This document shows, piece by piece, positions 1 through 5,324 of a stretch of DNA of 5,324 bases. The notes under the pieces were generated by a model. The model had not been told where the DNA came from. It ran no database searches and worked only from the letters and a program-made list of their open reading frames with translations. This DNA comes from a virus (lineage: Duplodnaviria; Heunggongvirae; Uroviricota; Caudoviricetes), in IMG/VR virus record IMGVR_UViG_2667527595_000014; one strand, 5' to 3'. Each line of letters opens with the position of its first letter. Position 1 is the stretch's first letter. The position numbers and the translations under genes are program-made.

Positions 1-3000
1 CGTTAATCGTGACGTTGTTGAGCGTCCCGGAATTCGCATTCACGTTACCGCTGATATCAGCATTTCTTGCGGTCAGCCTGCCCTCCGGCGTCAGGGAAAA
101 CGTCGGGGGATTGCCGGACGAGGTGATACTCACCGCAAACAGCCGCTTCAGGAACACATCGTTCATGAACAACTGATTCCCCTGCGCCACAAATAACGGC
201 GTGGTGTTGCCGTCCTCCGGGTTAATCATCGCAATACGGTCAGCCAGCAGCAGTATGTTGCTCAGGGGCTGGCCATCAGTATCCTCAATCCCCGCTCCAA
301 TACCGGCAACATAGGGTATGCCATTTTTTGTTTTCTGTACCTTCAGCATGTAAAGTGCAGCAAGGTCATCATTTGTGTCCTTCTGCACGCGCTGTATCTG
401 CTGTATGGTGGCGCTCTGGTCCTCCAGCGTTTTACTGACCGTCTGTGTGATTTCATTGCGGGTTTCTGTGATGGTGGTCTGCATTTCCGCCATCTCGTCC
501 TTCAGCTGACTGTTGTCAATCTCTGCCCACAGCGCCTCTGCCAGATGCGTTTTTCCTATCTTTTCCCGGAAAAGTTCCAGATAGCCCGCAGCATCATTGC
601 TCGCCCGTCCACTGGCTTCCACAAAAGCAGATTTACCCACCAGGTTGACGCTGCGCACATAAAACCAGAAATCCTTTCCGGGCTTAATGTGCGGGCCGGA
701 GACACTCCACTGACTGCCGGTCCCCAGATAACGGGCAGAGGTTTCCACCTGTGCGGCGTCTGCAATTTTTGCCTCCGAAAACCAGAACTCAAACTGCACC
801 GTCGGGTCATACACCGCAAGACGCGGTACCGCCGTTATCTGAAAATACCCCGGCGTCAGTTCAACACCGGCAGGCGCTGCCGGTGCGTTAATCCGGAACG
901 TGGTGGTGGCGGGTTCGCCCTGCTGGCCATAGCTGTTAATCGCCCTGACCGTCAGGGTGTATTCCCCGAGAGGCAGGCCACTGAAACGGTGCTCCGTATC
1001 GGCAGTGATGGCGGTGGTCAGCAGGCGGCTGTTCTCACCGCTTCCACTGGTCAGGCGCAGACTGAAGCGCACGCCCTTCACCACCCGCGGCGTGTCCCAT
1101 TTCGCCAGCGCCAGATACTGGCCGTCAGCTGCGCTCACCTCCACCGTCAGGTGCTGCACTGCCGGTGGGATAACGCTGTTCAGGGTGCCTGACTGCGGCT
1201 CAAAGCGGGCTCCGTTATCCACAATGGCTTCTTTTTCCGGTACGTGCTGCACTGCCGTGATGGCAAAGGTGCCGTCCGTGTTTTCCCGGATGGAGACACA
1301 GCGGAACAGGCGACGGCGCAGTGACGGCAGGGAGAGTCCCCACACCCCGTATGTCTCCACACCATCAGGCAGGGTACTGACCTGTATCCGGTCCGGCGCG
1401 GGGTGTGCGGTGATGTCCACACTCACCGGCTTACCGCTGCCGTTAATCAGGTTCACCGTCGATGTACCTGTCCCCGGAAGTGTCACTTCACGGTCCAGCG
1501 TCAGGGTGCGGGTGGCAGCATCAATGGACAGGACACGTCCGCCGGTCAGGGTTCCGGCATAGTCGTTATCACAGATTTCAATGATGTCACCGGGTGTGTG
1601 CCGCAGCCCCTGTGACCCGAGTGTGAAATCCACCGTCTGCGTTTCCAGCAGTTCTGTCTTTATCACCCACAGCCCGGCACGGTGGGCCTGACCGCGACTG
1701 GTGCAGCCGAACGCATCCATCTTCAGCAGGTTGCGTCCGTAGCGCAGTATGGCTTCCGGGTCTTCCACCAGTTCCGTGGAGGTCTGCCAGCCGTTCTGCG
1801 GGTCGGTGTAATTCACCTCCACCGCCGTGTGCCGGTCCTTCAGGGCACTGAAGCTGTAGCGGAACCCCACGCCGTTATCATCCACCACCACATCGCTGTT
1901 CGTGTACGGCCACACCACATCCGACTGGCGGTCCTGAACGAACGTCAGCGTCTGGCCGTTCCATACCGGCATACAGCGCATCGCCGAGCAGAAATCACTG
2001 AGAACGTCCCACGCCTTACGCTGTTGTGCCAGGTACGCATTAAAGGTCATCCGCGGCTCTGTGCCCCCGAAACCATCCGGGACCGTCTGGTCGCAGTACT
2101 GCCCGATGGCATACAGCGCCCACTTGTCCACATCCGCCGCCCCCAGGCGTTTTCCCATCCCGTAGCGCGGGTGAGTCAGCATGTCCCACAGGCACCAGGC
2201 CGGGTTGTTGCTGTATGCCGGTTTCAGACTGCCGTCCCAGATACCGCTGTAGGTGCGTTTTTCCGGGTCATAGTTTGACGGCACCTGGATGATGCGACCG
2301 CGGATATGGTAGTTCACCGTCATCTGCTGACCACCGAACTGCTCCGCATCCACCTGCAGCCCCACAATCGCCGTGTTCGGGTAGCACTGTTTCACATCGA
2401 TGATTTCGGTGTACGATGACCAGAGTGTTCTGTTCTGCAACTGGTCCGTGGTGCTGTCCGCCGTCTCCCGGACCATCCGGATGTTAAAAGGACGGGGAGG
2501 CAGATTATCCAGAATCACCGACGCCAGAAACTGCGAGGTGGTCTTGCCGTTAATGGTGACATCCTTTTCTGTCACCCAGTTACCGTTACGCTGTAACTGA
2601 ATCAGCAGGCGGACGGATGTCGGGTTTCGGTCACCCTTTGACGTGGTCTGCACCAGTGACTGCACCCCGAAGGTAACCCGCAGGCGGTCAATGTTCGCGG
2701 ACGTAATGGTGCGTGTCACCGGTTTTGCCTTCGTCACTTCCACACCCAGTACAGTTTCAGCTCCGGAGGACTCAAAGCCTTCCGGTGGTGTCTGCTCCTG
2801 CTCCCCGGCACGCCAGACGGCGGTCACACCGTGTATCACGGGATTACCGTCCGTGTCCGTCAGCGGGGTTTTGTTCACCAGAATACTCTGCAGTCCCTTC
2901 ACCGGACCTTCCACCGGTCCCTCACCAATGGCATCAATCACGCTCATCATCTGCGTGGATTTGAGATTATCCTTCGCCTCACGAGGTGTGTGCGCCTTGC

Positions 3001-3016
3001 CGCCACCTTTACCCAC
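1..3016 (-). CDS. J: Tail tip central fiber / host specificity protein J (gpJ homologue), 3'-truncated by window edge; ~1005 N-terminal codons present
   Basis: Manual reverse-complement translation from GTG at 3016..3014 gives [52 protein letters not shown]..., which I recognise as the lambda gpJ N-terminus ([21 protein letters not shown]...). The frame stayed open and lambda-J-like through my read to position 2 (e.g. ...[39 protein letters not shown]..., ...[30 protein letters not shown]..., ...[13 protein letters not shown]...). Shine-Dalgarno-like AGGAGAGGGGG at 3022..3032 (minus), 5 nt upstream of GTG. Absent from the ORF track, presumably because no stop lies in the window. Position downstream of I matches lambda gene order. 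Confidence 0.92.
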
Positions 3017-3055
3017 TCTGTCCCCCTCTCCTGTCTGATGTCTGAATCTGTTTAT

Positions 3056-3090
3056 GCCCAAAAAACAACAGGCACCCCGGAGGGTGCCTG
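3056..3090 (-). terminator. Rho-independent terminator on minus strand, between the small ORF and J
   Basis: Perfect 9-bp GC-rich inverted repeat CAGGCACCC (3069..3077) / GGGTGCCTG (3082..3090) with a 4-nt loop. On the minus strand the stem is followed directly by TTGTTTTTTGGG (plus 3056..3068). Lies 2 nt after the stop of the 31-codon ORF and about 40 nt upstream of the J start. Confidence 0.6.
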
Positions 3091-3092
3091 CA

Positions 3093-3188
3093 TCATGACG
3101 GAATAAAAATTCTGAATATCTTCACATTTTCACAAACTGACTGTGGCGCGTATAATTTCGCTGCGTTAGTGTTTTTTTGCCGTGACAT
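3093..3188 (-). CDS. Hypothetical small protein, 31 aa ([31 protein letters not shown]), moron-like ORF in the I-J spacer
   Basis: ATG at 3188..3186, TGA at 3095..3093. Canonical SD AAGGAG (plus 3199..3204) 10 nt upstream of the ATG. Stop is followed at once by the minus-strand terminator. Too short for codon-usage judgement and no homologue recognised. Start and SD sit inside an inverted repeat (3166..3173 / 3205..3212). Confidence 0.3.
3129..3156 (+). promoter_or_regulatory. Candidate sigma70-type promoter on the plus strand (antisense to the tail operon)
   Basis: -35-like TTCACA (3129..3134), 16-nt spacer, consensus -10 TATAAT (3151..3156). Predicted transcription start about 3162..3164. 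Located in an AT-rich intergenic island, facing away from J and toward the plus-strand terminator at 3232..3270. Confidence 0.4.
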
Positions 3189-3268
3189 AAAAAAACAACT
3201 CCTTAACACTAATCTTCATTTGTCCGAATCTCCCGCAGCTCCGCGATCACTGCGGGATTTTTTATTCT
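3163..3268 (+). ncRNA. Candidate ~100-nt small RNA, cis-antisense to the SD and start codon of the 31-codon ORF and to the I-J spacer
   Basis: Bounded by the predicted promoter (3129..3156) and the plus-strand intrinsic terminator (3232..3270). Contains an internal imperfect hairpin: TTAGTGTT (3166..3173) pairs with AACACTAA (3205..3212), with T-run/A-run complementarity inside. No convincing plus-strand ORF; the track ORF 3169..3417 runs through the terminator hairpin and is antisense to gene I. Ends are predictions, not mapped. Confidence 0.3.
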
Positions 3269-3270
3269 TT
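3232..3270 (+). terminator. Rho-independent terminator on plus strand, abutting the stop codon of gene I
   Basis: Inverted repeat CCCGCAG (3232..3238) / CTGCGGG (3250..3256), extendable by a T:A pair at 3231/3257, with an 11-nt loop. Followed on the plus strand by ATTTTTTATTCTTTTT (3257..3272). On the minus strand there is no U-tract after the stem, so it is directional for plus-strand transcripts only. The loop is rather long, which lowers confidence. Confidence 0.5.
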
Positions 3271-3951
3271 TTACCCCTGCCGTCCGATAACCACCACTTT
3301 CCCGCCCCCGCCTTCATCACGGGTACTGATGTCCTGGGATATACGGCGGGAGCCAACCAGCATTTCCCCGTAAGGCACCGGCATCGGGTTACCCTGGGCA
3401 ATCATGTTGTCCAGTGACGAAAAGTACGTGTTCTGTCTGCCGTTATCCGTTGCGCGGTAATCCGGTGTTTTTGCCTTCGGGGCCAGCATCTGGGCCACAC
3501 CGCCCAGAATCATACTGGCACCCAGTGAAAACAGCATCGTGGTGGCAGAAAAACCACCGGCTGCCAGGGCTGAACCCCATAACGCCATTGATGCTCCGGC
3601 AGTGAAGAAAGACCCCACAATGGCAGCTGCCCCCAGCACAATCTGTAGTCCGCCCTTTCCGGCCCCGGCCAGTCGCGGCACAATATGGATAACCGTTCCC
3701 TCACCCAGTGGTTCGTGAAGGCGGGCATACACCGCCTCCGGTGCCGTATCCTCACCGGCAATGCGTATCTGGTACCAGCCTTCGTTCATCTGACGGCGAA
3801 AGCCCGGCACCTGCAGCGACAGGGCGCGGATGGCTTCCGCCGCCGTGTTCACATACAGGCTGAAGCGGCGGCCAAATCGTTGTAAATCCCCGTGAAGGCA
3901 GATGCGTGCCAGTGGCGGTGACGCCAGACAGAATGCGTTCGTCGTTGCCAT
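3271..3951 (-). CDS. I: Tail tip assembly protein I (gpI homologue), 226 aa
   Basis: ORF-track protein MATTNAFCLASPPLARICLHGDLQRFGRRF...GEMLVGSRRISQDISTRDEGGGGKVVVIGRQG is, by my recollection, closely similar to lambda gpI (223 aa), including the ARICLYGDLQRFGRR-type N-terminus and a Gly/Ala-rich hydrophobic central segment. ATG at 3951..3949, TAA at 3273..3271. Overlaps the 3' end of K by 103 nt out of frame, as in lambda. Confidence 0.92.
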   Translation of the reverse strand: MATTNAFCLASPPLARICLHGDLQRFGRRFSLYVNTAAEAIRALSLQVPGFRRQMNEGWYQIRIAGEDTAPEAVYARLHEPLGEGTVIHIVPRLAGAGKGGLQIVLGAAAIVGSFFTAGASMALWGSALAAGGFSATTMLFSLGASMILGGVAQMLAPKAKTPDYRATDNGRQNTYFSSLDNMIAQGNPMPVPYGEMLVGSRRISQDISTRDEGGGGKVVVIGRQG

Positions 3952-4602: not shown

Positions 4603-5301
4603 TTACTGCGAAAGTTTATTAATGGAAAGGAAACCGCCAAAATTGCCGACATTCCTGCGCAGTTCACACCCGCGCATGCACTTGCTGCATCTGTCCTTAC
4701 GGATATCCGTGGTGGGTTTATCGAACTCATCCGCCACAGCCCCGCCCGTGTAACCACACTCATCAGAGCGGTAGGTCCACATACAGGTGTTCGCCAGCAT
4801 GATACGACCGGGAAACAGCGCCCCGTCCGTCTCGGTCGGTGTGGCCAGCACAAACGAGGCCGTCATGGCTGTCAGCTGCGACATCTGCTCCACCACCCAG
4901 CGGTCACTCAGCTCCTGCTCCGGGTCCGCTTCCGGATTGCCCGCAACGAAATTCACCGCATCCAGAAAACGGGCATACACCCGGCGGCGGACCACCGTGG
5001 CCCCCACCAGGCTCTGCAAATCCTCCGCCATTCCGGTGACAAGACCAAACAGATTGGACACCGTCAGCAACGGTCTGGCACTGCTGCCCTTCCCGCTCAT
5101 CTCAAAACCGCTACCGTCAATCGGGTATGCCTGATATTGCCGCCCCTGCCAGGTGACCGGCTCCCCTTTTTCATTCAGCTCATTGCAGAAAAAATACCGC
5201 TCACCGCCCTGCACCGTCAGGTCGATTTCCCAGAGCACCACCCGCGGTGACTGCTCTGATTTAACCGACTCGTTCAGACTTTCTTCGTGAATATCCTGCA
5301 T
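4603..5301 (-). CDS. L: Tail tip protein L (gpL homologue), 232 aa
   Basis: Translation MQDIHEESLNESVKSEQSPRVVLWEIDLTVQGGERYFFCNELNEKGEPVTWQGRQYQ...NVGNFGGFLSINKLSQ is recognised as closely similar to lambda gpL, which I recall as 232 aa beginning MQDI. ATG at 5301..5299 chosen over the track's upstream ATG at 5313 because it matches the lambda N-terminus and length. TAA at 4605..4603. C-terminal Cys cluster (C173, C182, C205, C208, C212) present. Confidence 0.93.
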   Translation of the reverse strand: MQDIHEESLNESVKSEQSPRVVLWEIDLTVQGGERYFFCNELNEKGEPVTWQGRQYQAYPIDGSGFEMSGKGSSARPLLTVSNLFGLVTGMAEDLQSLVGATVVRRRVYARFLDAVNFVAGNPEADPEQELSDRWVVEQMSQLTAMTASFVLATPTETDGALFPGRIMLANTCMWTYRSDECGYTGGAVADEFDKPTTDIRKDRCSKCMRGCELRRNVGNFGGFLSINKLSQ

Positions 5302-5324
5302 ATATCCGCCCATAAAAAAGGGGC

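Follow-up and report, generated by a model that had tools for sequence, protein, structure and literature searches.

The closest described relatives of the element analyzed here are two sets of small RNAs from E. coli prophages. PasB (pathogenicity-associated sRNA B) was reported from EPEC E2348/69 as an 83-nt RNA of prophage PP6 (NC_011601.1 1466343-1466261, minus strand; Table S6 in Pearl Mizrahi 2021, PMC8550237). It was validated by Northern blotting with the probe AATCCCGCAGTGATCGCGGAGCT, its stability was Hfq-dependent, its level was higher under non-activating conditions, and it had dozens of Hfq-mediated RIL-seq partners, ranking 15 by number of interactions (Pearl Mizrahi 2021, PMC8550237). 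A later study described PasB as lying inside an operon of phage structural genes, limited to Escherichia and Shigella and frequent among extraintestinal isolates, and put its seed immediately 5' of the terminator (Zhu, Shabalina & Storz 2026, bioRxiv 10.64898/2026.05.13.724894). No common target motif was reported for PasB, nor has a target of any allele been validated. EcOnc22, EcOnc23 and EcOnc24 were described as one family of ~85 nt RNAs, encoded in the Sakai prophages Sp15, Sp14 and Sp11 respectively, confirmed by Northern blotting, crosslinked in Hfq-CRAC and destabilized in an hfq mutant (Tree 2014, PMC4104026). Their targets were given as unknown in a 2021 review, and neither Pas paper drew a link between PasB and EcOnc22-24.

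The stretch of DNA analyzed here (the window, 5,324 nt) was identified by Pfam as a lambdoid tail-gene block on the minus strand, with L, K, I and the 5' part of J. The sRNA unit sits antisense to I and J in the 254-nt gap between them (3017-3270); the same gap measures only 60 nt in lambda. The J gene starts at a GTG codon (3016-3014) with a Shine-Dalgarno (SD) sequence at 3021-3031, and its N-terminus could be aligned with lambda J. The stop codon of I lies 4 nt past the 3' end of the sRNA. The features are as follows.

1..3016, minus strand: tail tip/host specificity protein J gene, 5' part (Pfam J-domain matches)
3058..3091, minus strand: operon-strand terminator-like hairpin, 10 bp (3091-3068) followed by TGTTTTTT (terminator scan)
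3093..3209, minus strand: non-conserved ORF with the ATG at 3186-3188, not regarded as a gene
3103..3128, plus strand: conserved upstream promoter block ATAAAAATTCTGAATATCTTCACATT, about -60 to -35 (allele comparison)
3129..3134, plus strand: -35 hexamer TTCACA (promoter scan)
3151..3156, plus strand: -10 hexamer TATAAT (promoter scan)
3163..3266, plus strand: probable PasB-family sRNA, predicted primary transcript (5' end placed from the -10 box)
3187..3198, plus strand: A-rich tract AUAAAAAAACAA, candidate (ARN)n site for the distal face of Hfq (allele comparison)
3199..3204, plus strand: CUCCUU motif, anti-Shine-Dalgarno-like (column conservation)
3211..3217, plus strand: AAUCUUC motif, just 5' of the terminator (column conservation)
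3232..3263, plus strand: Rho-independent terminator with a 7-bp stem, an 11-nt variable loop and a U6 tail (terminator scan and fold)
3271..3951, minus strand: tail assembly protein I gene (Pfam PF06805, E = 1.5e-15)
Upstream of I in the operon, minus strand: K gene, JAB and NlpC/P60 domains (Pfam)
4603-5313, minus strand: L gene (Pfam)

The feature is very probably an allele of pasB, an sRNA 'moron' that lies between I and J and points against both. It is a real gene but an already known one, the published sRNA of E. coli prophages. The PasB probe AATCCCGCAGTGATCGCGGAGCT is the exact reverse complement of window positions 3237-3259, and PasB in NC_011601.1 is flanked by the tail assembly protein I gene and gpJ and runs antisense to the two. 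Over the aligned I-J region the window and E2348/69 were 88% identical. The -35 and -10 hexamers, terminator stem, probe target, CUCCUU motif, slot and orientation are the same in both, whereas the seed motif reads GAUCUUC in E2348/69, and the window allele has ~12 substitutions and two short insertions (AU near 3188, GAAUC near 3225) in the RNA body, and its tail is one U shorter. The marks of the PasB family were thus found in the window: sequence identity that includes the validated probe target, antisense placement between I and J of a lambdoid prophage, and the RNA's own sigma70 promoter and intrinsic terminator with poly-U. The initial annotation, made from the sequence alone, had proposed a discrete, autonomously transcribed non-coding RNA against the tail operon, and this is borne out by the promoter, the terminator and the PasB match. 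Its fallback suggestion, action in trans on host targets, agrees with the published homologues (the RIL-seq partners of PasB and the Hfq crosslinks of EcOnc22-24). An Hfq-stabilized, mRNA-pairing RNA of ~83 nt has been seen only for the E2348/69 and Sakai homologues, and a comparable RNA would be expected from the window allele.

On the strand opposite the tail genes, the EcOnc22/23/24 coordinates lie between I and J of Sp15, Sp14 and Sp11, each time at an equal offset from J. The coordinates of Tree 2014 refer to NC_002695.1 and are ~128-132 nt lower than those of NC_002695.2, at least from 2.17 Mb on, so that the sRNAs are misplaced if mapped directly onto version 2. The shift was calibrated on HnrS, and the placement of EcOnc22 relies on a correction of +128 nt, after which it spans about 2902842-2902902 and falls within the homologous RNA (2902836-2902926). 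From the I-J placement and the position of the shifted EcOnc22 within the homologous RNA, it was concluded that EcOnc22-24 are most likely the EHEC alleles of the PasB locus. They have in common with the window the slot, the strand, the upstream block, the start region GC(G/A)UUA, the A-rich tract, the CUCC and AAUCUUC motifs and the terminator stem, but the 5' domain and linker are divergent, the gap is ~82% identical and the EcOnc -35 hexamer is degenerate. With PasB and EcOnc22-24 taken as one locus, the EPEC and EHEC data can be pooled, and the family shows more diversity than blastn with an 83-nt query would reveal.

The promoter TTCACA-16 nt-TATAAT (3129-3156, plus strand) matches the sigma70 consensus at 11 of 12 positions and was the sole promoter-like site when both strands of the 5.3-kb window were scanned; an equally good site occurred in 1.9% of 1,000 composition-matched random windows. 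The near-consensus, plus-directed promoter that had been read from the sequence was therefore confirmed. Its -35 hexamer is degenerate in the O157 and u22 alleles, and the -10 hexamer was TATAAT in 68/75 viral loci, the remainder having TATCAT, AATAAT or GATAAA. The most conserved part precedes the -35 hexamer, and a common regulator may act there. Across 11 allele types the block at 3103-3128 had a mean pairwise identity of 95.5% with 23/26 columns invariant, compared with 65% for the -35 and 84% for the -10 hexamer. Within it lies the inverted repeat TGAAtatcTTCA, and a direct repeat, TTCACAttTTCACA, spans the block and the -35 hexamer; these features suggest a transcription-factor or UP-element site. 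A species-wide scan for the block returned 88 matches, about the number estimated by chance, and the whole module accompanied it in only 3.

The stem CCCGCAG (3232-3238) pairs with CTGCGGG (3250-3256) and is followed by T6 (3258-3263), and 75 nt separate the -10 box from the stem. The stem-loop and U-run that had been placed about 75 nt after the promoter thus proved to be an intrinsic terminator at that distance. Conservation of promoter and terminator in related inserts had been put forward as a check on the unit; the terminator was kept in 79/80 related viral loci and the upstream block in 75 of the 79 that retain the terminator, and the unit is therefore more than a chance arrangement. The terminator stem was invariant in 16/16 alleles with a loop identity of 52%, and since the stem never varies it offers no covariation support.

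With a start 7-9 nt after the -10 box (3163-3165) and a 3' end within or just after the U-run (3258-3266), the predicted primary transcript is 101-104 nt in the window, 98 nt in E2348/69 and 91 nt in O157. The ~100-nt RNA of no credible coding capacity in the initial annotation fits this size; the plus-strand ORF at 3169-3417, which runs past the terminator into the antisense of gene I and had no Pfam match, was discounted. These predictions exceed the published lengths (83 and ~85 nt) by 6-15 nt, and the difference reflects either 5' processing or imprecise mapping. The 5' end of EPEC PasB, set from read coverage (Pearl Mizrahi 2021, PMC8550237), corresponds to window position ~3178, the end of a U-run.

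The predicted RNA folds at -21.5 kcal/mol (z = -2.3), and its MFE fold has a 9-bp stem (3165-3173 with 3205-3213) that encloses an open A-rich loop. The long imperfect hairpin at 3166..3212 that had been noted is accordingly present as an outer stem in this one fold, but it is not conserved: across 16 alleles the 5' domain folded differently in each, only a 4-bp base of the stem was retained, and neither these counts nor the 2 pairs with compensatory changes exceeded shuffles. RNAalifold across the alleles retained nothing except the invariant terminator stem.

Conservation within the RNA was uneven. The 80 IMG/VR loci held 27 distinct RNA sequences and 48 distinct gap variants, and mean pairwise identity was 62% in the 5' domain, 34% in the linker, 100% in the terminator stems and 52% in the terminator loop. 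Every allele nevertheless retained the A-rich tract, a CUCC-type motif (3199-3204) and AAUCUUC (3211-3217). Although the sequences diverge, an A-rich run stands at 3187-3198 in every allele, and most of the 5'-domain columns that never vary are A. In CUCCUU, columns T38, C39 and C40 were nearly invariant and T42 invariant, with a mean predicted unpaired probability of 0.70 across 16 alleles. In AAUCUUC, columns A50-T54 were invariant and the predicted unpaired probability was 0.72 in the same alleles. This motif is the probable seed, in the region to which Zhu, Shabalina & Storz 2026 assign the seed of PasB. The conserved parts fit a trans-acting Hfq-dependent sRNA with anti-Shine-Dalgarno-like seeds, the function of each element being putative.

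In a lysogen, host sigma70 RNA polymerase would start at ~3163 and stop at the intrinsic terminator at ~3263, giving an RNA of ~90-100 nt that may be shortened at its 5' U-run to the ~83-85 nt found by Northern blotting of the homologues. Hfq would be bound by the terminator hairpin, the U-tail and the internal A-rich tract, and CUCCUU and AAUCUUC would base-pair in trans with host and prophage mRNAs at purine-rich stretches, which are typically ribosome-binding regions. The exact 5' end, the choice of seed, the regulatory outcome and the targets are the parts of this scheme that we infer.

Matches to the gap were found in 1,814/5,426 complete E. coli genomes (median 2, and up to 10, places per genome) and in 147 phage records, mostly Stx-converting phages. 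The module adjoined the I stop codon in 80/80 IMG/VR loci retrieved with protein I. Its antisense I-J position is invariant, with 4-6 nt between its 3' end and the I stop codon. Among GTDB species representatives only E. albertii carried the module, apart from two tiny, contamination-like contigs. The latter hold complete E. coli-type PasB modules, in a 460-nt contig of Parendozoicomonas haliclonae (L111) and a 3.4-kb contig of Streptomyces flavalbus (L132), for which contamination of the assemblies by E. coli or phage DNA is the likeliest explanation. No RNA was annotated at the gap among the similar records listed, and a scan of the window against Rfam 15 at E <= 1 (AgvB, AsxR, Esr41, STnc100 and Sok included) gave no relevant match; the sole match (sR32, E = 0.31, inside gene J) was noise. 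The module is a validated prophage sRNA gene that was spotted from sequence although genome annotation misses it and Rfam has no model for it, a result of mainly calibration value. It is present in a third of complete E. coli genomes, often in multiple copies.

The I-J slot also carries other cargo. A sodC gene for a 175-aa Cu,Zn superoxide dismutase (PF00080, E = 8e-32) occupies the slot in L079 (2422-2949, minus strand of the locus, the PasB orientation) and in L077. The PasB promoter downstream of it is intact, which makes the slot a multi-cargo moron site. In L078 (~2185-2371) and L037 the sodC gene ends ~85 nt before a PasB-like body that has no TTCTGAA..TTCACA/-10 promoter, and the sRNA body and terminator of these loci are possibly a sodC 3'UTR, that is, a 3'UTR-derived variant.

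Several readings were weighed against, or in addition to, a trans-acting pasB allele. One of them, unlikely as a whole, is that the I-J sRNAs form a single modular allelic series (PasB of EPEC/ExPEC and EcOnc22-24 of EHEC), possibly with a role in cis. Such a series may consist of a fixed regulatory block, seed motifs and terminator with swappable 5' domains, and in some phages the sRNA would have been captured as the 3'UTR of a sodC moron. If this were true, the induced, antiterminated tail mRNA would be cleaved between I and J or would titrate the sRNA, tying a host regulon to the lysis decision.

Action in cis on the late tail operon, besides or instead of action in trans, appeared improbable. 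The Q-antiterminated late mRNA holds a perfect ~100-nt complement of the sRNA, so that cleavage by RNase III could uncouple I and J; alternatively, PasB could be titrated at induction by this abundant late mRNA. The invariant antisense geometry, with the 3' end at its short distance from the I stop and convergent transcription inherent in the arrangement, speaks for such a role. However, the RNA ends >130 nt from the J ribosome-binding site (3021-3031), so occlusion of that site is impossible; the slot also hosts the unrelated sodC moron in the same orientation, so the position may be a mere permissive insertion site; and the conserved internal motifs, together with RIL-seq partners elsewhere in the genome, indicate action in trans.

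The reading favored by the initial annotation, in which a cis-antisense RNA masks the SD and start codon of a small minus-strand gene and thereby represses it, in the manner of type I toxin-antitoxin loci, is highly improbable and was already largely refuted by the comparative data. In the window the minus-strand ATG (3186-3188) does lie 10 nt downstream of AAGGAG (3204-3199) and the plus-strand RNA covers both. The perfect complementarity that had been claimed for these two sites is thus true, yet trivial for any antisense pair. The ORF itself is allele-specific, since its start, frame and stop differ among the 48 gap variants and the predicted lengths vary widely. The ATG at 3186-3188 was found in window-type alleles only, and other alleles start at a different ATG, one formed by the seed complement (AUCUUCAU); the commonest alleles have neither ATG. 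Indels shift the frames, and E2348/69-type alleles end at a TAA made by the -10 box. The 31-aa peptide of the window is hydrophilic, with no membrane helix and no Pfam match to its ORF, and AAGGAG is explained as the complement of the conserved sRNA motif CUCCUU. No minus-strand promoter-like site was found in the gap or elsewhere in the window, so the ORF would be transcribed only within the late operon. The proposal of an antisense-controlled small gene was rejected on these grounds.

The seed complement also generates other apparent ORFs. On the minus strand of 3211-3218 (ATGAAGAT) it makes an ATG that opens variable ORFs of 17-41 aa (MKI[NS]V...) in many alleles, and a hypothetical protein is sometimes annotated across the I-J gap (e.g., match H31). 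The sequences indicate that these seed-complement ORFs are artefacts.

The operon-strand hairpin at 3058-3091, which precedes the J ribosome-binding site, is conserved in E2348/69 and Sakai (L083 531-560). Its lambda counterpart is a GC-rich hairpin with a T-run within the short I-J gap (lambda 15445-15504; L178 946-1005), and the hairpin is probably an ancestral element of the I-J junction that lies outside the sRNA gene. A different hairpin (CCCCGGTATC..GATACCGGGG) was present in 50/80 viral loci and the window type in 14/80; the I-J hairpin may be a conserved attenuator passed only by antiterminated polymerase. The least probable reading, that the unit is mainly a transcriptional insulator whose strong promoter, directed against the operon, acts together with this hairpin to bar stray transcription from J in the lysogen and yields the RNA as a by-product, draws on the adjacency of hairpin and module and on the alternative hairpins at the same place in other architectures, but the lambda hairpin occurs without the sRNA module, so that the two are separable, a by-product would not retain its motifs, A-tract and U-tail while other parts diverge to 34-62% identity, and the homologous RNAs are abundant Hfq ligands.

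As a pasB allele, the window RNA was compared with other described sRNAs and antisense systems. HnrS (EcOnc10/11/12) is a 66-nt prophage sRNA that represses hha (Poudyal 2026, PMC13502914). It resembles the window RNA as a multicopy, Hfq-associated prophage sRNA of EHEC/EPEC late regions with the heptamer AAUCUUC, but its locus lies between DNase and endopeptidase genes in the lysis/terminase region and its terminator differs. HnrS maps to Sakai NC_002695.2 2234371-2234436 (L087 ~1172-1237). The O157 allele had been suspected to be HnrS from its copy number and AAUCUUC, and this was ruled out by the actual mazF 3' end and hha leader, by a seed search and by the Sakai locus. The HnrS seed complementary to mazF/hha, CUUCUACCCAAUCAGUAC, was absent from 84 other loci, every I-J locus included, and CCCAATCAGTAC was absent from the window and from the same 84 loci. 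The window RNA thus has neither a lysis/terminase location nor this seed, which in HnrS is complementary both to the hha RBS and to the final 15 nt of mazF. Whole-molecule duplex energies of PasB alleles with hha were discarded, since even the validated HnrS-hha pair was not separated from shuffles, because U-run/A-run pairing dominates these energies. The HnrS and PasB-family RNAs have AAUCUUC in common despite unrelated loci and terminators, and in RNAs so short this could be chance.

The anti-sRNAs AgvB and AsxR (RF02702, RF02703) likewise occupy lambdoid prophage 'moron' sites as short, Hfq-binding RNAs in which the 3' part is conserved and the 5' domain varies. In contrast to the window RNA they lie downstream of PR' and not in the tail operon; the window matched neither Rfam family. 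Nothing points to a sponge function for the window RNA. Type I loci (the hok/sok, ldr/rdl and tisB/istR class) combine a conserved small ORF for a hydrophobic, membrane-active toxin, a toxin mRNA with its own promoter and an antisense RNA over the translation-initiation region. Their likeness to the window is confined to the last of these, an sRNA over an opposite-strand start in this one allele, a geometry that is uninformative without a conserved ORF; the conserved toxin ORF, hydrophobic peptide and toxin promoter have no counterpart in the window. The OOP RNA of lambda, cis-antisense to cII, is also a short phage transcript that runs against a phage operon from its own promoter to an intrinsic terminator. 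OOP overlaps a coding region and acts in cis via RNase III, whereas the window RNA overlaps intercistronic sequence only and its homologues have many partners in trans.
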